A stretch of 27,430 nt of DNA from Vulcanimicrobiota bacterium (lineage in GTDB: Bacteria; Vulcanimicrobiota; Vulcanimicrobiia; Vulcanimicrobiales; Vulcanimicrobiaceae). The notes beneath the pieces were generated by a model. It saw only the letters and a list, made by a program, of their open reading frames with translations. It did not search any database and was not told the DNA's origin. This document shows, piece by piece, positions 1,015 to 20,671 of this stretch. Location of the stretch: positions 1 to 27,430 of the forward strand of contig PLCF01000058.1 of the NCBI GenBank assembly GCA_003135555.1, written 5' to 3'. How positions within the stretch are numbered: the first letter of the stretch is position 1; every line of letters begins with the position of its first letter. A program made the position numbers and the translations under genes.

Positions 1015-1710
1015 TCATTCCTTTGCCGCAACGTCGGCCAGACAAACCATTAGTAGTTGCCGGTGCCATGAGGGAACCGATTGTCCCAAGATTCTAGAGA
1101 CAAGCTCATCTCGTATATTGCTTGCGAACTCCACTCCATCTGAAACGAGACCAAGCGCATCTTCGGGGCTGGTCAGGTCTTTCCGGTCGGTAAGTGTCCG
1201 ATGCGCGAATGCACCTCGTGCCCTAAGTAATCGATGCAGTGACGCTTCGAATCGGCTACTCGTACTCAGTTCAATCCCAAGCGGCCAAAAGAGTCGACGG
1301 AGATGTTTTCGCCCTGCTCCATGATTCCCAAGCTCGACGTGCTGCGCAAACCTGTCACACGCGTCAGAAAACGCAGCTTGTAACGTCCCCATGAAGTCGT
1401 GATGAGTTGGGTCGCCATAAAGATAGCCTTCTTTTTTGCCGTGATACAGAAGCATCGGCGCTCGAAGTGCATCTCTCCTCGCGTCAGTTCCGGCCGTATC
1501 TCTAAGCCACTCGAGATAAAGCAAAGCAAACGACTCCAGCGTGTGTTCAAGTGACGCATATGATAGAACGCAAAATGACTTCACATCTATAACGTAAGCT
1601 TCTGGAGGTTCTACGGCGCCGACGTGTGGATCGATGAAGTTCCCTTTGAGCTGCAAAACGCCATCAGCGAGTGCACCCAGCAACTCGTCTATGGCATCAA
1701 CGGCGCTCAT
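1015..1710 (-). CDS. HEPN domain protein (RiboL-PSP/MAE_28990-like), putative RNase effector
   Basis: R-x4-H motif (RGAFAH) and an N-terminal helix with conserved Glu (SFCVLSYASLE). ATGA overlap with the upstream DUF262 gene. Confidence 0.75.
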   Translation of the reverse strand: MSAVDAIDELLGALADGVLQLKGNFIDPHVGAVEPPEAYVIDVKSFCVLSYASLEHTLESFALLYLEWLRDTAGTDARRDALRAPMLLYHGKKEGYLYGDPTHHDFMGTLQAAFSDACDRFAQHVELGNHGAGRKHLRRLFWPLGIELSTSSRFEASLHRLLRARGAFAHRTLTDRKDLTSPEDALGLVSDGVEFASNIRDELVSRILGQSVPSWHRQLLMVCLADVAAKE

Positions 1711-3434
1711 TGCTCGATTAGGATCTCCGGCAATTCAAATGTTCTCCCAAAAACATTCGATGCTAGTGTCGCGACGTGTTGAAAGCGAACTTTATACTGA
1801 TCCAAACTTTTTGTCGTTACGCTTACTGACGACCTAAAATCGTTGCTCAACGAATAGAGGGCGATAAAGCCGTTACGGAAGGACTCCTCCTTGCCCCGAA
1901 GCTCCTTGTCCGACACTTGCCGGATGTACCATATTTGTGTCTCGAATATCGCACGATTAAAGCGACGATCAAATGTGCCTTTAGGCATCGGTCGGCGCCC
2001 GACCGAAGTCGCTCCGCCAAATATCGCGATGAGTCGCCTTATAGCGCTCTCGAAAGATTCATGTGCAAGTTCCAGCTTGTTACGATATCGGCGCCAATCG
2101 GCGTTGAATTTATTTGTCACTTCATCAAGGAAACCACGCAAGTTCCCTCGGTATAGTTCAAAGTGTAACACTTGAGCGAAGTATCGCAGCATAATTTCTG
2201 AATCGCGATATCGCGGGTCTGGACCTGAAAGGCCAAGAACGTCGTGAATTTGGGTTTTTTTACTGGTGAGGCGGTCCAAAAACGTTGTAAATTCGCCGCG
2301 GTACAAAGATTGGCGGAGTTCCTGTGGACTAAGGCTCACTGATCCGGAATTCAGACGATAGAATACGTAATATAGGTACTCGTAAGATATGGAACTTCGG
2401 CTCGATATTACGGCGCAGCGGACATCAGCATTCATCAATTCGCGATGTGCGGAACGATACTTTGGATTGTTTGCTAATTCTGCAAACGAGACGCCATCTA
2501 GGTCTGGAAGAATATTTAGACCGGACAGCCGATGCTTTTGCCAATACGGTACTGTAGTATCAATGTATCCCCAGAGTGTCATCAGGCGTTGTCGACCATC
2601 GATGACAATAAACGACCGTTTCTCGTCGGGTTTTTCCGCAAAAACGAGTTGAGGAACCGGAATGCCGGCTATGAGGCTTTCGATGAGGCCGCTTCGCTTG
2701 TCATCGGTCCACGCATTCCGCCGCTGGAATTCCGGATCGAGCTTAATATTGCCGGACGTAATCTGGTCGATCACTGTCGCGACAGTCCAATCGCGCGAAT
2801 AAACAACGAGGTCGCGATAGTCTGGCGGCGTTTGGAAGTCGGCGAGAGTCTCGTCGGGATCTTCGTAAAGACCAACGGTATCAGACTCAATCTCGGCGGT
2901 CAGCTCTTCCACGTTAGTTTCACTGGGGCACAAGAGACTGATTAGTGCTGCGCTAACGCCCTGTACCGAAAGTTCGTCTATCGAATAGTTCCGTGGTTCC
3001 ATCCACTCGGCTCGATCGCTGAGCCGGTTGCCGTCTGCGATCGGGCCGCCCGGCGGAATTGATGGGACGAGTTGTGCCGTATCCTTGCTCAGAACCCGTA
3101 GGACGCCGCCGTGTGCGCCGCGCCTGAGTGACCAAGTTCGCTCGCTTGTTTCTGTAATGTCAACTTCGCATGTCTCGAGAACGCGAGTTGCAATTTCGGC
3201 GAACCATTGGTAAATGTCCAATCGCTGATTCCCCCGGGAGAGGCGCTGACGCGGCGACTCTCGATTCTCCTGCTGTTTGCTAAGGGTGGTTGATTGGGGG
3301 TGGTCCGGCGGTTGCTTTGCGAATGCCTGCCGCGGTTGAAAGGCTGGAGCTAGAATGACGCAATAATCATCCCGCGTATTTCGGCCGGGGACGGCATTTC
3401 CTAGACCTAGTTTGGTGTTCGCCGCCGCCGGCAA
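1707..3434 (-). CDS. DUF262 (GmrSD N-terminal, ParB/Srx-like) domain protein; true start probably downstream (ATG near 3003 or GTG 2912)
   Basis: Motifs PEFQRRNAW, LIESLIAGIPVP, VIDGRQRL and FYRLNSGSVSLSPQELR. The first ~140 codons look less protein-like. Confidence 0.88.
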   Translation of the reverse strand: MPAAANTKLGLGNAVPGRNTRDDYCVILAPAFQPRQAFAKQPPDHPQSTTLSKQQENRESPRQRLSRGNQRLDIYQWFAEIATRVLETCEVDITETSERTWSLRRGAHGGVLRVLSKDTAQLVPSIPPGGPIADGNRLSDRAEWMEPRNYSIDELSVQGVSAALISLLCPSETNVEELTAEIESDTVGLYEDPDETLADFQTPPDYRDLVVYSRDWTVATVIDQITSGNIKLDPEFQRRNAWTDDKRSGLIESLIAGIPVPQLVFAEKPDEKRSFIVIDGRQRLMTLWGYIDTTVPYWQKHRLSGLNILPDLDGVSFAELANNPKYRSAHRELMNADVRCAVISSRSSISYEYLYYVFYRLNSGSVSLSPQELRQSLYRGEFTTFLDRLTSKKTQIHDVLGLSGPDPRYRDSEIMLRYFAQVLHFELYRGNLRGFLDEVTNKFNADWRRYRNKLELAHESFESAIRRLIAIFGGATSVGRRPMPKGTFDRRFNRAIFETQIWYIRQVSDKELRGKEESFRNGFIALYSLSNDFRSSVSVTTKSLDQYKVRFQHVATLASNVFGRTFELPEILIEQ

Positions 3435-4141
3435 ATGCGGCGGGCCAAAGGTTTTCGAAGTCCTGTCTCCTGGTCCACGCCGGAAGCGTCGAGTGGCAGG
3501 GACCGCGCATCAGATGGCTCCAGCTTATCGCCAACCGGCAAGGTCCTTGTCGGCTCATGGGGGGCCGCGTTTCAGAGGGCCCTATCTCCTATCCCGGCTG
3601 CGCGCCGATCGCGGTTGCGACGAATTGGATCGTGACGAGGGTTGGCGAAGACCGCCCGACCGCCACTTTCCTCGGCGTGAGGCCTGCGCGCCAAGTGAGG
3701 TGATGCTAATGCGCGGACCTGCCGAATGTACCGCACTCGCGGGGGCACGTTGGCCTGCGCTGAGGCGCGCAGACGAGCGTGACGATGGAATGGCGACGAA
3801 GATCGGCAGCCCTCGCGCGACTCTCCCGAAACCGACCGGTTCCGGGATGCGGGACGAACAGCGCTGCAACCCGGTGGCGTCGGTCCCGAAATATCGTCCC
3901 GGAACTCGCGACATGGCCCTTCGCGCGGCTCGCGAACGGTGGCGAGACCCAGGCCGTTGCTCGACGCGCTCGACCTCCTCGCGTCGCGGCTACATTTCGC
4001 GGTCAGGTGGCGGCTAGCCACGCGGCGGCAGAATGAACCGCATCGGATCGAAGTCCTCGACCGGCCTCGCAGTGAACGAGTAGAACCTGGATTGCAGCCA
4101 TCCGCGCACCTGGCCCCCAAGAGCGACGCCGTACGGACGTG

Positions 4142-5308
4142 CTACGTGCGGAACACGACTTCAAGCTCCCAGACGTCTTTTCCGCGCGCGCGTGCCCGGC
4201 GACCCAGACTGAGGATCCGCTCGATCGCGGCCGATTCCATGCACTCACTCTGCAGCTCGGCACGGTACCATTCCCAGAAGTCCCCACCGCCCGCCGCGCG
4301 CGCGTCGGCGCGCTTCGCTGCCGCCTCGCACTGCTCGAGCAATTCTTGGCGCTGCGCGTGCTCGCCGATGCGGTCGAGTCGCCGCATGATCTCATCGCTC
4401 CAGCCTTGCTGGTTCTCCGAGCTGAGCCTGCGTTCCCAATCAAACTGCGGCACCGCAACGTCGATATCGAATTGCGGGTCCGGCGCGCCGAGAAGTGGCT
4501 GACGATATCGGATTCCGCCCTCGACGGGCATTACGACCGGGAGCCTACACAGGTACGGGTACGCGTCGAACAGCAGCACACTGACGTACGTGCGGTCGCC
4601 GGCGGGAAAACAGGTAATCTCGTGGCGCGGCGGCCACGCCGACGGGAACAGCACATTGTCGAAAGGCGGCGTGCGAACATACTTGCCGCCGGCGAGTTGC
4701 TCGCCGAACACGAAGGGCAGCAATTCATTCGCGACGGCCGCCGGGACGTCGCTGATAAACCCGGCGAAAAAGTGAAGCGCGATCTTTAGCACGCCGGCCT
4801 CCGACGCGCGGTCGGACCCAACCTCGAACGTGAGCGGCGGCGCCTTGCCGATCGTCGCGATGACGTGGTTTGTGCCGGTCGTCGCAAACGCGCCTTGCCG
4901 CATCAGGTTATCGAGCCGGGAGAGGTCGCCCTTTGCGCGCGTGATGCGCCCGCGTTCGTCACGCTTCTCGACTTCAAGAGCGAGCAACGGGACGCGACCG
5001 TCGGAGGTGACCGTCATCGTCCGCCCGTCGTCCGTTACTCCGTCGAACGAGACGCCGACATTTCCGTCGTGACGGCGCACGCGCAGGAGGTTGACCAGCG
5101 GGCGGACGTTCGCGCTGAACGGTTCGTCGGTCCGCGCGCCGATGATGCGGTTGTGCTCCGGGCAGAGGATGTTGGCCCAGAGCCTGCCTCCAATCGCCTG
5201 CGGCACGGCGTGCTCCCCCGACGTCGCCGGCCTCGTGCAGTACAGGCACTGCTCCGGCGCCCTGCGGTGCCGATCGATGAGCGCGCCGGACGTCAGTCGG
5301 TCCATCAC
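4142..5308 (-). CDS. HNH endonuclease (N-terminal HNH_5-type domain plus uncharacterised C-terminal region)
   Basis: CLYC...EHAVPQAIGG...LCPEHN pattern in a 388-aa ORF. Confidence 0.8.
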   Translation of the reverse strand: MMDRLTSGALIDRHRRAPEQCLYCTRPATSGEHAVPQAIGGRLWANILCPEHNRIIGARTDEPFSANVRPLVNLLRVRRHDGNVGVSFDGVTDDGRTMTVTSDGRVPLLALEVEKRDERGRITRAKGDLSRLDNLMRQGAFATTGTNHVIATIGKAPPLTFEVGSDRASEAGVLKIALHFFAGFISDVPAAVANELLPFVFGEQLAGGKYVRTPPFDNVLFPSAWPPRHEITCFPAGDRTYVSVLLFDAYPYLCRLPVVMPVEGGIRYRQPLLGAPDPQFDIDVAVPQFDWERRLSSENQQGWSDEIMRRLDRIGEHAQRQELLEQCEAAAKRADARAAGGGDFWEWYRAELQSECMESAAIERILSLGRRARARGKDVWELEVVFRT

Positions 5309-7408: not shown

Positions 7409-7499
7409 CGCCACCGGGCCGCGACGGCGATCTCACCATATATGGGCGTAGGCAGTAGGGTGGCAGTAGAGGATCCGGGCTCTAAAGCAAGCAGGTGAT

Positions 7500-7526
7500 A
7501 AAAAACCGCGCCGTAGCGCGGTTTTT
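7500..7526. terminator. Bidirectional intrinsic terminator
   Basis: AAAAACCGCGC-CGTA-GCGCGGTTTTT perfect hairpin with A/T tracts on both sides, directly 3' of the tRNA-Ile fragment. Confidence 0.75.
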
Positions 7527-7527
7527 C

Positions 7528-7576
7528 TGGTGGGCCATCCTGGTCTCGAACCAGGGACCTCATGCTTATCAAGCAC
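7528..7576 (-). pseudogene. 3' half of tRNA-Ile(GAT), att-core-like fragment
   Basis: Minus strand reads GTGC-TTGATAA-GCATG-AGGTC-CCTGG-TTCGAGA-CCAGG-ATGGCCC-A-CCA. No D arm or 5' acceptor strand upstream. Confidence 0.8.
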
Positions 7577-9981: not shown

Positions 9982-10512
9982 ATGAGTTCGACGATTCCAG
10001 GCGTGTCGCTTTTCATCGATGACGAGATGGGCGGCCGGCAAATGCACTTCGCGTTGACGCCCGAGTTCGAGGCGAAGTACGAACTGAAACCACTAGCAGT
10101 CGATTCGGCAAAGCGCAACACGAAGAGAATAGGCGATATTTCGGAGCTTCATGCGATAATAGCGTTGACGAAGATGGGTTACAAAGTATTGTTGCCCTTC
10201 GGCGAGAATCAGCGCTACGATTTTGTTGTGGATGATGGGCGGACGCTGTCGCGCATTCAAGTAAAAACGGGCCGACTCCGAAACGGCGTGATCTTGTACG
10301 GCGCTGCAAGTACGCACGGACATCGGGGTCGCCCGTGTCGCCCGTACCGGGGCGAAGTCGAGTACTTCGCCGTCTATTGTCCGGATACGGAGAAGGTCTA
10401 TTTGGTACCCGAGTCGGACCTTACGAGGTCCCTCGGGAGCCTGCGTGTCGCGCCGACGAAGAACAACGTTCAGAAGACGGTGCGGTGGGCTTCGACGTAC
10501 GAGCTGGCGTAG
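9982..10512 (+). CDS. Group I intron-associated-type PD-(D/E)XK endonuclease (PDDEXK_5-like)
   Basis: GDISE...LLPFGENQRYDFVVD...RIQVKTG...YFAVYCP. Stop codon lies within tRNA-Thr. Confidence 0.85.
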   Translation: MSSTIPGVSLFIDDEMGGRQMHFALTPEFEAKYELKPLAVDSAKRNTKRIGDISELHAIIALTKMGYKVLLPFGENQRYDFVVDDGRTLSRIQVKTGRLRNGVILYGAASTHGHRGRPCRPYRGEVEYFAVYCPDTEKVYLVPESDLTRSLGSLRVAPTKNNVQKTVRWASTYELA

Positions 10513-16088: not shown

Positions 16089-16154
16089 CAGCCGGGAGGA
16101 GGGTCCTGCAGGATCACGCCGCGGGTAGTGGTCCCTTTTGAATCGGCCACCCCC

Positions 16155-16184
16155 TTGACATACGGGACGGTAGACGCCGACCCT
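16155..16184 (+). promoter_or_regulatory. Putative promoter for the small basic protein
   Basis: Perfect TTGACA at 16155 and a weak -10 (GACCCT, 18-bp spacer) 6 nt before GTG 16191. Confidence 0.4.
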
Positions 16185-16190
16185 TGAGGG

Positions 16191-16424
16191 GTGCCGAAGA
16201 AGCCACCCTCCGATCCGAGCCAAGCCGCCCGGTCGATCCTGGACCAAATCACGGGCGAGAAGCCCAAGGTCATGCCGACCCAGAAGAACGGCGCGGCCGT
16301 GGAGCTAGGGCGCAAGGGTGGCGAGGCACGCCGGGACGCGCTCTCGGCCGAGGAGCGGTCCCGGATCGCCAAAGAGGCCGCCCGGAAGCGGTGGGGCGAC
16401 CCGGCCGACGAGGGTGTAGAATAA
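16191..16424 (+). CDS. Small basic protein of the GRKGG...KRW type, recurrent in IS1/IS1595-like cargo elements
   Basis: KNGAAVELGRKGGEARRDALSAEERSRIAKEAARKRW; family recognised from recall. Confidence 0.8.
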   Translation: MPKKPPSDPSQAARSILDQITGEKPKVMPTQKNGAAVELGRKGGEARRDALSAEERSRIAKEAARKRWGDPADEGVE

Positions 16425-16429
16425 AGTGT

Positions 16430-16525
16430 CAGAGACGGTGGGATTCGGACCCACGGGGGCGCCCCTGAAAAGCCTCCCCGCCCGGACCTAACGCCGGGTG
16501 CCTTAAACCGCTCGGCCACGTCTCC
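16430..16525 (-). ncRNA. Irregular tRNA-like gene with a Ser-like body, long variable arm and 8-nt anticodon loop
   Basis: GGAGACG-TG-GCCGAGCGGTTTAAGGC-A-CCCGG-CGTTAGGT-CCGGG-(26-nt V arm)-GTGGG-TCCGAAT-CCCAC-CGTCTCT-G-ACA. Confidence 0.8.
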
Positions 16526-16528
16526 CCG

Positions 16529-16563
16529 ACAAAGCGCCGAGGCCTTACGCCTCGGCGCTTTGT
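16529..16563. terminator. Perfect 15-bp hairpin between the ImmA gene and the tRNA-like gene
   Basis: ACAAAGCGCCGAGGC-CTTAC-GCCTCGGCGCTTTGT. Confidence 0.6.
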
Positions 16564-16564
16564 A

Positions 16565-17761
16565 TTATGCGCGCCGCCTCCACGGCTCAGGCTGATCATC
16601 GCGCGGATAGATACCGAAGGGATCGTCGTTGTGATTAGCATCTAATTCCTTCGGGTCGAGCGCGCAGAAGCGCGCGAAGTCCGACGGCAACAGGCCAACC
16701 TCCTCAGACAATGCCAACAGGTTCTCGGGATGCGCGTCGCGCAGCGTAACGATCGCCGTCGCGAGAAGGCGCGGATGCTCCATTGGTATTTGCTCGTCTA
16801 ACGGCTCGCTCGTTCCCCAGCCACGACGGTTGCGATTCATCCAGAATCGCTTGTATGTCGCGTCGTCGATCATCCCCAAGTCCTTCGCGCGCGTCATCAT
16901 GGTCGCGACCGAGAGGTACCAATGCGTCTTCGCAAGCAGCAAGTTGTCGAGTGTTACCGGGCTGACTGATCGACGAAAGGTGCCTTCGGGCATGAGGAAC
17001 GCGCGAGCGAATCGGAACGCTTGCGTCTCAATCAAACCGTGCGTCTTGGGATTCACCTCAAGGTACCGGCGGTCGATGTTTCGATGGAGTACTAGATGAC
17101 CCAATTCGTGCGCTACGTCGGTCCGCCGGTGCGACGCGCTGACCTCGCGACAGCCAATAGCAATGATTGGTCGGCCGTTATGCGCCCAAATTGAAAAGCC
17201 GTCCACCGTAGGCGATTCGATGACATTCGGGACGACCACGCAGCCGTGGCCTTCCACCAGTCGAATGACGTCGCGCACGACGCCATTGCTCATTCCCCAA
17301 GCGCGGCGTAACTCCGTAGCAGCTACGTCGATCAACTCGTCGCTGATTTGCTGCGGATCGCTCGGCGGCTTGAAATCGGGCACGGTGACGTCGGGCAAAA
17401 CGACGTACTGCTCAAGCGCGACGATGAAATCGCGGACCCATGCCAGCTGCCGCTCAACGGCACGAAGATGCTTTGGCGTCGTTTTCGAGCGAAATTGCCG
17501 AAAAAACACGGCGGCCGGCTCGGGTGGCGCTTCCGGCCGCATGAAGAATCCAATCGGCACGTTCAACGCTGCTGCGAAACGCGCGACCGCGCTTGGAGTA
17601 GCGCGAATCTCCCCCTCCTGGTACCGATAAACTAACTGCCGATTGGTCCCAAGCCGATCAGCAAGGTCCTTTAAGGACAGTCCGCGCGCCTCGCGCGCTT
17701 CTTTCAAGCGCGCGAGCGGGTGATCGGGCGCGCGCGCAAGGACCTCGGGGCGGTCGTTCAT
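16565..17761 (-). CDS. XRE HTH plus ImmA/IrrE (peptidase M78) zinc metallopeptidase
   Basis: N-terminal RLKEAREARGLSLKDLADRLG...YRYQEG, then RRTDVAHELGH (HExxH) and ETQAFRFARAFLMP. Confidence 0.92.
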   Translation of the reverse strand: MNDRPEVLARAPDHPLARLKEAREARGLSLKDLADRLGTNRQLVYRYQEGEIRATPSAVARFAAALNVPIGFFMRPEAPPEPAAVFFRQFRSKTTPKHLRAVERQLAWVRDFIVALEQYVVLPDVTVPDFKPPSDPQQISDELIDVAATELRRAWGMSNGVVRDVIRLVEGHGCVVVPNVIESPTVDGFSIWAHNGRPIIAIGCREVSASHRRTDVAHELGHLVLHRNIDRRYLEVNPKTHGLIETQAFRFARAFLMPEGTFRRSVSPVTLDNLLLAKTHWYLSVATMMTRAKDLGMIDDATYKRFWMNRNRRGWGTSEPLDEQIPMEHPRLLATAIVTLRDAHPENLLALSEEVGLLPSDFARFCALDPKELDANHNDDPFGIYPRDDQPEPWRRRA

Positions 17762-18393
17762 CCGAGCTTCGGTTTGCGCTGGGCGCGGATTTGCTTGCCC
17801 TTGCGGAGCGGCGTGACGTTGGGTGAGGCGGCGGGCTCGACCGGCGCGTCCGTTGCGCTCGCTTTCAAAAGCTCCAATAGATCAAGACGCTGGTCGGGCA
17901 CCCAAAAGCCATCCGGGTGCAACAAGCGCAGGTACATGAACGCGACGATCGCCGGGTTCTTTCTAAACCCGTAACAGATCGTGCCCCATAGCCTCACGTT
18001 TTGGTCGAACAACGATAGTTCGGTCGGTCGCGTTTGCGTAATCTGATGCAGCTGCGGTGTTGCGAAGCGATACTCAACTTTGTTCACCGCAAGCCGTGCA
18101 TCGGGCGTAACCAACGCGGTGTAGTACGTCGAGCCGCCTTCGTGCCGGCGAGACGTGACGCTTAAAATTGGTACGATGTTGCGGATCGTCGCTTGGCGTT
18201 GAAGCGCCGCGTGAATGTCGTAGTACTTGTTAATGCCGACGACGTGCGGCCGCATCTCTTCGGGATATTGGTTAAAGCGTTGCACGACGGGCGGGCAAGC
18301 GTCCACGATAGTGCGAGCAACCTCGCGAAGCGCGGATAACGGAAATACGCCGATGAAATCCTCGATCGTCGGGCCTGGTTTGGGAGGGGCCAC
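17758..18393 (-). CDS. Hypothetical protein translationally coupled to XRE-ImmA; candidate toxin or effector
   Basis: GAAAGGA RBS before the GTG, ATGA overlap with the downstream gene, 211 aa. Confidence 0.75.
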   Translation of the reverse strand: MAPPKPGPTIEDFIGVFPLSALREVARTIVDACPPVVQRFNQYPEEMRPHVVGINKYYDIHAALQRQATIRNIVPILSVTSRRHEGGSTYYTALVTPDARLAVNKVEYRFATPQLHQITQTRPTELSLFDQNVRLWGTICYGFRKNPAIVAFMYLRLLHPDGFWVPDQRLDLLELLKASATDAPVEPAASPNVTPLRKGKQIRAQRKPKLG

Positions 18394-18514
18394 CCTGGGG
18401 CCGTCCTTTCAGCGGAAAAATGTCACGCTGTAACGTTGTCATCCTTATCGCACATTCTGGCATTTTTTGTCAACCTCGCCCTACGGCGGGGGCTAGTTTT
18501 GTCACCGTATCCCC

Positions 18515-18543
18515 TTGTAAACTGCTTGGCGCTATGCAATAAT
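18515..18543 (+). promoter_or_regulatory. Putative transposase promoter
   Basis: TTGTAA-17 bp-AATAAT, 6 nt before ATG 18550. A divergent TTGACA lies on the minus strand at 18468-18473. Confidence 0.5.
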
Positions 18544-18549
18544 GGGAGT

Positions 18550-19407
18550 ATGAACCGTCTCCCCCTCGCCGACCGCGTTCGCATCCTGGGCGCCCTGGTC
18601 GAAGGCAACAGCGTTCGGGGAACCGCCCGGATCGTCGGGGTGGACAAGAAGACCGTCCTGCGCCTCTTGGCGGACGTCGGGGACGCCTGCGACGTCTACT
18701 TGGATCAGAATGTCCGCGGCCTCAAGAGCGAGCGGATTCAGTGTGACGAAATTTGGTCGTACTGCCACGCCAAGCAGCGCAACCTCCCGCGCGAATTGCG
18801 CGGAAACGATGGCGTCGGCGACCTGTGGACGTGGACGGCTATCGACGCCGACACAAAGCTGATCGTGGGATGGCACCTCGGCAAGCGAACGCACCAGGAC
18901 GCGAGCCTTTTCATTCGCGACCTCTCGCAGCGCGTCGTTTCGGAGCGCGTTCAAATATCAACCGACGGCCTCTCGTTCTACAACGGTCCGATTAAGCTGC
19001 ATTTCTTCCACCGTGCCGACCACGGCTCAGAGGTGAAAGACTACGGGCTGTTAGACGAGGATTCACCGGAGCGCAAGTATAGCCCGATGGTCGTGAAGCG
19101 CGTTCACCGGACGATACAGTACGGCGTTCCCGACCCGGACCATATTTCGACCGCCTACGTCGAGCGAAACAATCTCACGATGAGAATGTCCATGCGGCGG
19201 TTCACGCGGCTAACGAACGGCTTCTCGAAGAAGGCCGAGAACCTACGGCGCGCGCTCGCGCTCAATTTTGCTTTCTACAACCTTTGCCGCAAGCACCAGA
19301 CAATCAAGACCACGCCGGCGATCGCCGCGGGCCTCACGAACCGCATTTGGACGCTGCACGACCTTGCAAAACTGCCTGATGTCCTGAGCGATTCGCTAGC
19401 GGCCTAG
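18550..19407 (+). CDS. IS1-family DDE transposase, single ORF with N-terminal HTH
   Basis: LVEGNSVRGTARIVGV (HTH), IQCDEIWSY, WTWTAIDADTKL, ISTDGL and VERNNLTMRMSMRRFTRLTNGFSKK. Confidence 0.92.
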   Translation: MNRLPLADRVRILGALVEGNSVRGTARIVGVDKKTVLRLLADVGDACDVYLDQNVRGLKSERIQCDEIWSYCHAKQRNLPRELRGNDGVGDLWTWTAIDADTKLIVGWHLGKRTHQDASLFIRDLSQRVVSERVQISTDGLSFYNGPIKLHFFHRADHGSEVKDYGLLDEDSPERKYSPMVVKRVHRTIQYGVPDPDHISTAYVERNNLTMRMSMRRFTRLTNGFSKKAENLRRALALNFAFYNLCRKHQTIKTTPAIAAGLTNRIWTLHDLAKLPDVLSDSLAA

Positions 19408-19511
19408 TTGCGGGGAGCATGCGCCGAGAAACGGCGGTCCCATTCAGAGGGAGTCCACGCGCTTAGGCATAAGTCACGACCCCCATCTCTCCAGCAAAGC
19501 CGGGGGGCGCT

Positions 19512-20312
19512 ATGGAGTGGTTTGAGGCTGTCGAGAAGGTTGCGCCTTACGTCGTAAAAATAGAAACGCCGCGCGGCCACGGTACCGGCTTCTTATGTCT
19601 GTACAACGAGCCGCGCAACCTTTGCGGGATTGCAACAGCGTATCACGTCGTAGAGCATGCGGACGATTGGCAAGAACCAATTCGGCTCGTCCACAAGGGC
19701 ACCGCGAAAGCCCTGTTTTTGAGCGAGGGCCAACGTGTTATTTTTATGGACGAGGGTAACGATTCAGCCGTTATTCTTTTCCCGTCCGGCCAACTTGATT
19801 TGCCAAAGGAGCTGATACCGCTGATTCCAGCCGGTCGTTCGGCCAAGGTCGGCGTCGAGGTCGGTTGGCTCGGATATCCGGCCGTCACGCCTCAAAACCT
19901 CTGCTTTTTTGCTGGTGCTATTAGTGCGAGTACGAAGGACGCCTACTTCATTGACGGTGTCGCCATAAACGGCGTCAGCGGCGGCCCGGTTTTCCAACCG
20001 ATCGGCGACGAAATCTATATCCTGGGCACGATTTCCGCCTACTATCCGAACGTTCGCGGGATGGGCGACACGCTGCCCGGCCTGTCGTTTGCTCAAGGTG
20101 TTGCTCACTTTCACGAAACGATCGCTAAGGTTAAGTCATTGGACGAAGCGCGGAAAACGCAAAAACAGCCCGTACCAGCGCTTTCCCCGCCGGAGCCTAA
20201 GCGCGCCGGGTCGCCTCGTGCTGCACCGAAGGCCAAGAAAACTGCCAAGAAAACTACCAAGAAAAAAACTGCCAAGAAAACTGCGAAGCCCTCCCGCAAG
20301 CGTCCTCGGTAA
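19512..20312 (+). CDS. Trypsin-like serine protease, no signal peptide, Lys-rich C-terminal tail
   Basis: GTGF, TAYHVV (His), NDSAV (Asp), GVSGGPVF (Ser); tail KKTAKKTTKKKTAKKTAK. Confidence 0.88.
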   Translation: MEWFEAVEKVAPYVVKIETPRGHGTGFLCLYNEPRNLCGIATAYHVVEHADDWQEPIRLVHKGTAKALFLSEGQRVIFMDEGNDSAVILFPSGQLDLPKELIPLIPAGRSAKVGVEVGWLGYPAVTPQNLCFFAGAISASTKDAYFIDGVAINGVSGGPVFQPIGDEIYILGTISAYYPNVRGMGDTLPGLSFAQGVAHFHETIAKVKSLDEARKTQKQPVPALSPPEPKRAGSPRAAPKAKKTAKKTTKKKTAKKTAKPSRKRPR

Positions 20313-20671
20313 CAATCGGCGGCCCCGATGCGCCGCGCGGATTACCTCCGATGACTGGTACGTTACCATGCTCCGCTCCCGGTCCGGTAGGGGCTGCGGA
20401 CGTGTGGACGCGGTTTGCCTGCCATGCCGTGCGGTGCCGAGGCCTGGCGAGCCAAGCCACGCCGTGCTCGCCTTATACCCCGCTAGGCCGAGGGGCGGCG
20501 ACGCGGGCTTAGGCGCCGAGCCGGGGGCTGAAAGCGCGCCGCCGCCCCTGTCCAGGATAGAGCCCTCGATTCCTGGCGGCTAGTCACGTCGGACGGGGCT
20601 TTGCAGGTCGCAACGCCCTAGCGAGCGCTTGGCCCCTGAAAAGGGACCAGTACCCACGCCGCGTCCTTCGG

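Follow-up and report, generated by a model that had tools for sequence, protein, structure and literature searches.

The window analysed here, a stretch of 27,430 nucleotides from a Vulcanimicrobiota bacterium (contig PLCF01000058.1), contains an IS1-family transposon carrying a gene for a tRNA with a Ser-type body and the Leu anticodon UAG, and the codon matched by that anticodon, CTA, occupies two fixed leucine sites, Leu221 and Leu232, of the transposon's own transposase. The tRNA gene is a real gene and a member of a selected family, the codon pattern recurs in related elements and where the anticodon of such a tRNA has switched the transposase codon has switched as well. This coupling of the anticodon to the codons of the neighbouring transposase is the main finding, and the enlarged anticodon loop of the window copy is a side issue. 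It is probable that the element tRNA acts on the CTA codons of the transposase in some way. The features of the element are as follows.

16124-20654: IS1-family transposon, 4,531 bp
16115..16123: 9-bp target duplication, left copy (the empty allele has this sequence once)
16124..16139: left terminal inverted repeat
16191..16424, plus strand: small basic ORF, 77 aa, tail-to-tail with the tRNA gene across a 5-nt gap
16525-16430, minus strand: tRNA gene with a Ser body, 7/5 layout and Leu UAG anticodon (ARAGORN and manual fold)
16493-16486, minus strand: 8-nt anticodon loop CGUUAGGU, with one base more, 5' of UAG, than the 7-nt loop of the family
16429-16427, minus strand: ACA at the 3' side of the tRNA gene, CCA not being encoded
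16529..16563: hairpin of 16 bp, separated by 3 nt from the 5' end of the tRNA gene
16565..17761, minus strand: cargo gene for an HTH and ImmA/IrrE peptidase protein, an RmrA-like antitoxin
17758..18393, minus strand: cargo ORF of 211 aa, overlapping the RmrA-like gene
18515..18543, plus strand: sigma-70-like site directly before the transposase ATG, weak (2 found against 1.2 expected)
18550..19407, plus strand: single-ORF IS1-family DDE transposase, 285 aa (Pfam DDE_Tnp_IS1, HTH_38)
19210..19212, plus strand: CTA codon of Leu221, directly after the helix bearing E205
19243..19245, plus strand: CTA codon of Leu232, in the next helix (228-246)
19396..19398, plus strand: CTA codon of Leu283, the third and last, at a variable site near the stop
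19512..20312, plus strand: cargo gene for a protein with a trypsin-like peptidase domain (Pfam Trypsin_2)
20639..20654: right terminal inverted repeat, matching the left at 15/16 positions
20655..20663: 9-bp target duplication, right copy

The element is bounded by terminal inverted repeats and by a target duplication of 9 bp, the length produced by the IS1 family, and sequencing run X2 contains both the filled and the empty site, on contigs with depths of ~6.6 and 30, figures that do not equate to shares of cells. A first-pass annotation made from the letters alone had called the tRNA transposon-borne, and the inverted repeats, the duplication and the empty site bear this out. Homologues of the transposase bear the name IS1 family transposase, and its own Pfam IS1 match scores 25.1 bits (cut-off 24.1), with an NCBIfam score of 59.5 that lies below the cut-off of 100. 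The N-terminal part is helical and of HTH type, and D66, D139 and E205 are, from their motifs, the putative catalytic residues. A structure model (pLDDT 89) led a fold search to DDE transposase/integrase folds, model and search being informative on secondary structure and the DDE fold only.

The cargo of the window element has a likeness to the RosmerTA system (spr1629-spr1630; bioRxiv 10.1101/2025.09.02.673660), in that an HTH-ImmA/IrrE antitoxin gene is overlapped by an ORF upstream. The gene at 16565..17761 encodes an HTH-peptidase of the RmrA type, with a PADLOC RmrA match at E 4.6e-91 and an NF052239 score of 173 bits, below the cut-off of 335. The 211-aa ORF is likely to be its toxin partner; it had no match in Pfam, PADLOC (including RmrT) or NCBIfam, and its predicted fold lies near spr1630/DUF5986 clusters with a TM of 0.58, under the tool's bar for naming. 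What sets the window cargo apart from RosmerTA is that it lacks an RmrT profile match and that the pair is one of several cargoes. The RmrA-like gene adjoins only 9/46 of the family tRNAs, the other cargoes vary between elements and some family tRNA copies stand directly after the transposase, whereas a small ORF or an IS1-like transposase is found in the flanks of 36/46. The tRNA thus belongs to the transposon and not to the operon, and the RosmerTA-like pair is interchangeable cargo. The idea that the tRNA is an RNA partner of the upstream operon is accordingly unsupported, given also the 16-bp hairpin which separates the two here. That hairpin appears terminator-like in both directions, and a stable upstream hairpin (z <= -2 against mononucleotide shuffles) was found in 25/45 family genes. 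The 77-aa small ORF matched no Pfam family. Elsewhere in the window, 12-nt repeats at 20223-20300 encode a Lys-rich AKKT tail of the trypsin-like cargo protein, and a gene for a PD-(D/E)XK endonuclease at 9982-10512 has its end inside the start of tRNA-Thr(GGT). A low-GC island at 1015-5308, with GmrSD-type/NsnA-like, RiboL-PSP-HEPN and HNH genes, lies to the left of a tRNA-Ile(GAT)-like stretch at ~7470-7550 that ARAGORN did not call.

The features which the first-pass annotation had listed for the tRNA are all present, on the minus strand. The acceptor stem has 7 bp including G1-U72, the D stem 3 bp, the anticodon stem 5 bp and the T stem 5 bp with the T loop UCCGAAU; the variable region is 26 nt long and G73 is followed by ACA. 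Scoring with ARAGORN, proposed in the same annotation, labelled the locus tRNA-???(ttag). A covariance model of the family gives the window copy 99 bits, a score to be read with the copy itself being part of the model's alignment. The Rfam tRNA model did not report the window copy at E <= 1 and its folding alone was not better than that of shuffles (z -0.66), both results being uninformative taken alone. A redrawing of the molecule as 8/4 or 9/3 was rejected, as U8 faces C65 and the acceptor is not extendable. Assembly error as the origin of the extra loop base was also rejected, since the base is identical and without variants in contigs from runs X1 and X2, which are two samples of one study and possibly of the same source as the window DNA.

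The family amounts to 46 distinct genes that combine a Ser body with UAG. They come from a nucleotide search across 401 genomes belonging to the phylum, from scanning species genomes (37 loci) and metagenomes (29 loci) with a pattern, and from later fetches. A caveat that must be applied to this number is that UAG was demanded by the metagenome pattern and by the final family count, so that it is no test of the constancy of the anticodon. A search by the small ORF found such a tRNA nearby at 16/76 places and UAG was the anticodon of every family-type tRNA among them, even of two that differ in their D stem and have a far longer variable arm. UAG is likewise retained in the very divergent bodies of L123, L127 and L208. 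An alignment of 34 copies has pairing in 96.7% of its pair cells, compared with 40-64% in slid controls, and two-sided changes occur at 14/26 pairs, including 5/5 in the anticodon stem; the covariation score was reached by 0/500 shuffles, a control that is inflated by relatedness. Covariation across homologues had been named beforehand as the check on whether the preserved stems reflect selection, and these compensatory changes support selection; pairing and covariation in the relatives also argue that the family is not a product of chance. The recount of flanks covered 38/46 genes and the remaining eight had no small ORF or IS1-like transposase match in an earlier flank search; three of the eight adjoin other transposases, presumably IS1595-like and SWIM-type.

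The pattern with UAG had 0 matches in viral contigs, where a wider pattern had six, none of them UAG, and a covariance-model search of 151 genomes returned mostly ordinary tRNA-Ser. Damaged family copies exist (L008, L010, L012, L014, L019 and L163), and a further one, L180:3978-4076, stands directly upstream of dnaA without a transposase match nearby. The variable arm (window 16455-16480) has a stem of 4-6 bp and a large and variable loop of ~10-15 nt, which often contains a U-turn-like triplet (CAG, UAA, CAA or UGA) that may be due to chance.

Among host Leu codons, CTA accounts for 1.55% (1,005/64,957) and TTA for 0.5% in 1,515 long host ORFs. In the predicted model Leu221 and Leu232 of the transposase flank the turn after the helix with the presumed catalytic E205. 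Residue 221 is Leu in 119/119 homologues, residue 232 is Leu in 107, His in 10 and Met in 2, and Ser is encoded at either site in 0/119. Site 283 varies and accepts Ser, with CTA or TTA in 16/16 cases where the residue is Leu. Of 22 transposases that adjoin a UAG tRNA, 21 reach the two sites, and all of these (21/21) have CTA at both 221 and 232, which are the only invariant codons among 80 conserved degenerate columns; the median share of the top codon across the columns is 0.57 and the next best reaches 0.95. The in-frame triplet alone is invariant and the neighbouring codons vary. Two exceptions that have the tRNA, L071 (CTG at 221 in a broken gene) and L362 (His at 232), were missed by this count because a length filter removed both. 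A CTAG motif was rejected as the source of the enrichment, the next base being A at 221 and mostly C at 232, and no covariation suggestive of extended pairing between loop and mRNA around the codons was seen by eye.

A set assembled from the transposase, without reference to the tRNA, covered 40/43 places, those omitted being the window, one unpublished genome and one N-terminal fragment, and the motif was present in 38 of the 40, of which 12 had a UAG tRNA, 2 a UAA tRNA and 24 none that was found. CTA stood at 221 in 12/12 and at 232 in 11/12 of the elements with a UAG tRNA, as against 14/24 and 9/24 of those without; 5/24 of the latter have ~1.5 kb or less of upstream flank, so that the tRNA could lie off the contig. 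The CTA pair was found in 0/29 Acidobacteriota and 0/93 Gemmatimonadota or viral-contig homologues. Background counts take in rows of the unpublished genomes G578, G683 and G783, on which the main claims do not depend. In plasmids, four distant transposases were matched. Of the remaining Leu sites, fewer have CTA in elements with the UAG tRNA, 10/298 (3.4%), than in those without it, 47/529 (8.9%), with a pooled p of 0.002 and a per-gene p of 0.02 for kin that are not independent, whereas TTA (4.7% vs 4.5%) and fourfold A-ending codons at these sites are unchanged. Elements in which no tRNA was found but which keep both CTAs have CTA at 5/196 of the other sites, and the remaining tRNA-less elements at 42/333; the low value in the former is as expected after recent loss of the tRNA or its supply in trans. 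The small ORF is itself rich in CTA in both classes of element, with 67/163 (41%) of Leu codons in elements with the tRNA and 69/247 (28%) in those without, and its TAG stop often overlaps the 3' end of the tRNA (CCT-A). A per-column count for this ORF may take in the unpublished genome G178, on which the main claims do not depend.

Changes of anticodon are accompanied by changes of codon. The elements L338 and L340 have a Ser-body tRNA with a UAA anticodon directly downstream of the transposase, and among the 38 elements of the transposase-first set they alone have TTA at 221. The three TTAs of the L340 transposase are those at 221, 232 and 283, and L338 has TTA at 221 and 283 with His at 232; at their other Leu sites these elements have 0 TTA and 8 CTA in 52. 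The two are sisters, so that the switch counts as one evolutionary event at up to three sites, and the small ORF of L338 did not follow it to TTA. In Gemmatimonadota, TTG occupies 221 in 2/2 elements whose tRNA has a CAA anticodon, against 1/14 of the others, a weaker case because TTG already makes up 4/27 and 5/28 of the Leu codons in those genes; the background of TTG at 221 is 16/93 in Gemmatimonadota or viral-contig homologues. In one Acidobacteriota element codon 221 is TTA and a search for a tRNA found none. The presence of the tRNA is scattered on the transposase tree, with 11 changes of which at least 7 are forced, and an independent-pairs test was not significant (7 pairs, of which 2.6 changed the same way, 0.1 the opposite way and 4.3 showed no difference, p ~0.25).

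Which amino acid the tRNA carries can be approached through the determinants for Ser and Leu given in Table 1 and the text of PMC9976931. The window tRNA has the Ser determinants G73, G2-C71, R4-Y69, C11-G24, G30-C40 and a long variable arm and lacks the listed C72, having U72, whereas in place of the Leu determinants A73, A15-U48 and A20a it has G73, G15-C48 and U20a; the first-pass description of a Ser-type body with a Leu anticodon therefore stands. Across the family (n=44) position 73 is G in 29, A in 10, C in 3 and U in 2. Ordinary tRNA-Ser genes of the phylum have G or U at 73, these controls taking in the unpublished genome G213, of which the main claims are independent, and five host tRNA-Leu(UAG) genes all have A73. 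In E. coli A73 is a key LeuRS determinant and G73 a LeuRS antideterminant (PMC9976931), and the distribution of N73 in the family fits SerRS better than LeuRS. The acceptor-stem Ser positions are conserved in the family, but the variable stem has just 4-6 pairs with frequent mismatch, and SerRS can be blocked by bulges in that stem (PMC7590224). With the Ser determinants on one side and a short mismatched variable stem on the other, charging of the element tRNA with Ser by the host SerRS is graded as likely.

The genome of the window has one SerRS above the cut-off, one gene of the CCA/poly(A) polymerase family and RNase Z matches that are below the cut-off. CCA is encoded in only 4/44 family genes and is missing too in the five host tRNA-Leu(UAG) genes and in 18/55 of the ARAGORN calls of the genome. 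Those 55 calls, from a genome that is 84% complete, do not include a tRNA-Leu(UAG). That the element tRNA fills such a gap was rejected, as 9/10 of the genomes tested have a host tRNA-Leu(UAG) of their own, two of them together with an element tRNA.

The reading that we tentatively prefer is that the Ser-body UAG tRNA places Ser at the CTAs of Leu221 and Leu232 in part of the transposase, yielding a form that is predicted to be inactive and would act as a brake on transposition. The tRNA gene would be transcribed at a low level through the upstream hairpin, which may hold the dose of tRNA low; processing, CCA addition and serylation by the host SerRS would follow, and the Ser-tRNA would compete with the host Leu-tRNA(UAG) at CUA to yield a second product from the same ORF, CUA presumably being rare enough to spare most host protein. 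Ser beside the catalytic helix would be expected to stop catalysis and leave the N-terminal DNA-binding part whole, and the inactive product could then compete for the transposon ends. In classical IS1 an inhibitor of this kind, InsA, is made by way of a frameshift (PMC12428005). The likeness is that of an IS1-family DDE transposase in which recoding would give transposase and inhibitor from one region; the difference is that InsA/InsAB' depends on a -1 frameshift at A6C (PMC12428005), whereas the window transposase is one ORF and its second product would arise from misreading of a codon by a tRNA that the element encodes. The inhibitory nature of the product is an analogy and not a result. 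Leu is the residue of the working enzyme, as 221 is Leu in all homologues, 232 is never Ser and, where the tRNA is missing, the sites carry different Leu codons or His; for the same reasons recoding to a required Ser is disfavoured. Fixed sites beside the catalytic helix, together with the purging of CTA elsewhere, where Ser would merely waste protein, fit a product that is folded and end-binding and non-catalytic.

Other readings of the coupling have to be weighed against misreading to Ser. It is unlikely that the tRNA is a helper which brings Leu to CUA or eases a pause there, making transposase synthesis dependent on it, much as genes are under rare-codon control by bldA in Streptomyces. 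Such a helper would give the same coupling and the same switches, both sites are naturally occupied by Leu or His and A73 is present in 10/44 family genes and in one of the two UAA genes; however, 34/44 are without this LeuRS determinant, the commoner G73 acts against LeuRS in E. coli, hosts own a tRNA-Leu(UAG) even where the element tRNA is present and the purge of CTA at other Leu sites is given no reason. Doubtful to the same degree is an RNA toxin or anti-phage device: Ser would replace Leu at CUA globally, to the detriment of the cell or of invaders rich in CUA, and the cargo operon or antisense read-through out of the small ORF would restrain it. When induced in E. coli, allo-tRNAs bearing Leu anticodons were lethal, and such genes adjoin toxin-antitoxin genes (PMC5389517); the tail-to-tail layout and the hairpin would permit an antisense transcript, the cargo is defence-like and the low frequency of CTA in the rest of the transposase is consistent with avoidance of harm. 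Against this, an element so exposed should lose CTA at an invariant Leu, yet there it is kept and switched with the anticodon, and the cargo varies between elements.

A tRNA that is uncharged or poorly charged and stalls ribosomes at the CUA codons of the transposase, or serves as a decoy for anticodon nucleases, would insert no amino acid at all. The scarcity of encoded CCA, C55 in 15/46 genes and irregularities at positions 32/33 in several point that way, as do six allo-tRNA(UAU) variants that were inactive in translation (PMC5389517), but host tRNA-Leu(UAG) genes lack CCA as well, the CCA/poly(A) polymerase-family gene is present, the acceptor-stem Ser positions are conserved and a decoy does not predict a match between anticodon and fixed transposase codons; we regard this reading as quite improbable. 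Rather improbable too is that the CTA pair is a trait inherited within a Vulcanimicrobiota lineage of transposases and independent of the tRNA, acting as a signal in RNA or DNA or as a rare-codon throttle, with the 8-nt copy as a decaying passenger. Retention of both CTAs in 9/24 elements where no tRNA was found, the lack of significance in the tree-aware test, the damaged family copies and the two private departures of the window copy speak for inheritance. It is countered by the restriction of invariance to the in-frame triplet, by the replacement of CTA with TTA exactly where the anticodon becomes UAA and by the persistence of UAG in very divergent bodies.

The 8-nt loop is private to the window copy, being found in 1/46 distinct UAG genes, and the other 45 have 7 nt, among them the nearest relative, L002, which is 91% identical. 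G1-U72 is unique to the window copy as well, with G1-C72 in 42/44 family genes. An 8-nt anticodon loop is a feature of +1 frameshift suppressors, and here it occurs in the window copy only; with 7-nt loops in 45/46 genes, +1 frameshifting, which had been raised from the loop, is unsupported as a role of the family. In +1 suppressors with four-base anticodons U33 is expected ahead of the anticodon, and in the window tRNA it is G that precedes UUAG. At Leu221 the context CUA-A does match UUAG and a +1 shift there would lead to a stop after 57 codons, so that four-base reading would truncate the transposase and would likewise be a brake. This is argued against by the G that would occupy position 33 and by the insertion being found in no relative. 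Most likely the extra base lies 5' of U33 with UAG still readable, or is paired as C32-G37, an alternative of -8.6 vs -7.3 kcal/mol. Natural enlarged anticodon loops are rare and mostly without known frame-shifting (PMC5009743). With its extra base and U72 the window copy is probably a weakened allele, and the chance that it still functions is about even.

The closest known counterparts are the allo-tRNAs (Mukai et al., NAR 45:2776, PMC5389517; reviewed in PMC7609411), which with Leu anticodons inserted Ser for Leu in E. coli. The likeness, already noted in the first-pass annotation, lies in a long variable arm, G73/U73 and Ser identity with non-Ser anticodons, including the Leu anticodons UAG, UAA and CAA, and in a location near transposon-related ORFs and toxin-antitoxin genes (PMC5389517). 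Allo-tRNAs differ in having an 8/4 or 9/3 layout and a long D stem with a tetraloop, whereas the window tRNA is 7/5 and has a canonical Ser D arm, with a 3-bp stem and an 11-nt loop resembling that of host tRNA-Ser. The one UAG-anticodon entry that was found in the supplement of PMC5389517 is a 9/3 gene unlike the window family, and the sections of that paper considered here give no target codon or biological role for allo-tRNAs; its Figure 4A, a drawing of the loci, may include elements of the present kind. The tRNA-ProX of Streptomyces and Kitasatospora similarly joins the body of one amino acid to the anticodon of another in a dedicated mistranslation device, with a Pro body, its own ProRS isoform and a role as a global stress aid (PMC10404621). 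In contrast, the window element has a Ser body, carries no synthetase and has the neighbouring transposase as its apparent target. The CUG-Ser yeasts, with Ser at a Leu codon, and bldA, with control of chosen genes by a rare Leu codon, are both genome-wide features of the host, whereas the window pattern is confined to a mobile element and its sites are Leu or His, not Ser, in homologues. Leu-to-Ser misreading in Candida is mentioned in PMC10404621.

Further irregular tRNAs were observed beside transposases. The gene L298:883, in genome G442, is 9/3 and allo-tRNA-like with a stop-reading UUA anticodon and lies beside an Acidobacteriota IS1-like transposase with one in-frame TAG, a single case in which the transposase may depend on suppression or the gene may simply be broken. 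Ser-body tRNAs with CUA, UUA and UAG at L179:4033-4130, L307:4232-4328 and L079:3990-4082 stand beside transposases presumably of the SWIM type, and in the ORFs of these three no in-frame stop to be suppressed was found. Others (UAG or CAU), including those at L056, L063 and L031, are near transposases that are presumably IS1595-like, and in two L063 transposases CTA makes up 3/17 and 2/18 of the Leu codons. Viral contigs and Gemmatimonadota have more irregular tRNAs that lie ~500 nt or less from an IS1-like transposase (the L400-L403:3281-3366 region, L415:3276-3359, L391:3226-3318, L446:3040-3129, L374:1286 and L426:3320-3394); some combine a Leu-like body with the stop anticodon UUA, others a Ser-like body with GUA, UAU or GUC, and an AGU anticodon occurs as well. 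In the genome of the window itself (G000), positions 48687-50222 of one contig hold an array of 16 irregular tRNA genes, which includes a CUA-anticodon call and short-armed Leu calls.

What is new here, and was missed by the first-pass annotation, is CTA at Leu221 and Leu232 of the transposase matching the anticodon of the element tRNA, which makes a specific target visible in sequence; no transposon tRNA matched to transposase codons was found described in searches of open-access literature. If the preferred reading holds, genes of this kind are mislabelled as tRNA-Leu or overlooked by tRNA scanners. A wider and still more tentative proposal is that IS1-like transposons of many phyla encode misreading tRNAs as a gene-specific recoding switch, in which a rare codon at fixed transposase sites would let one ORF specify both active and inhibitory protein with no need of a frameshift, with anticodon and codon co-evolving (UAG/CTA, UAA/TTA and CAA/TTG). 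If true, this would supply the missing natural role for allo-tRNA-like genes and amount to a form of transposition control that the literature searches did not turn up, and if the preferred reading of serine misincorporation holds, a mobile element would be altering the genetic code locally to regulate one gene.
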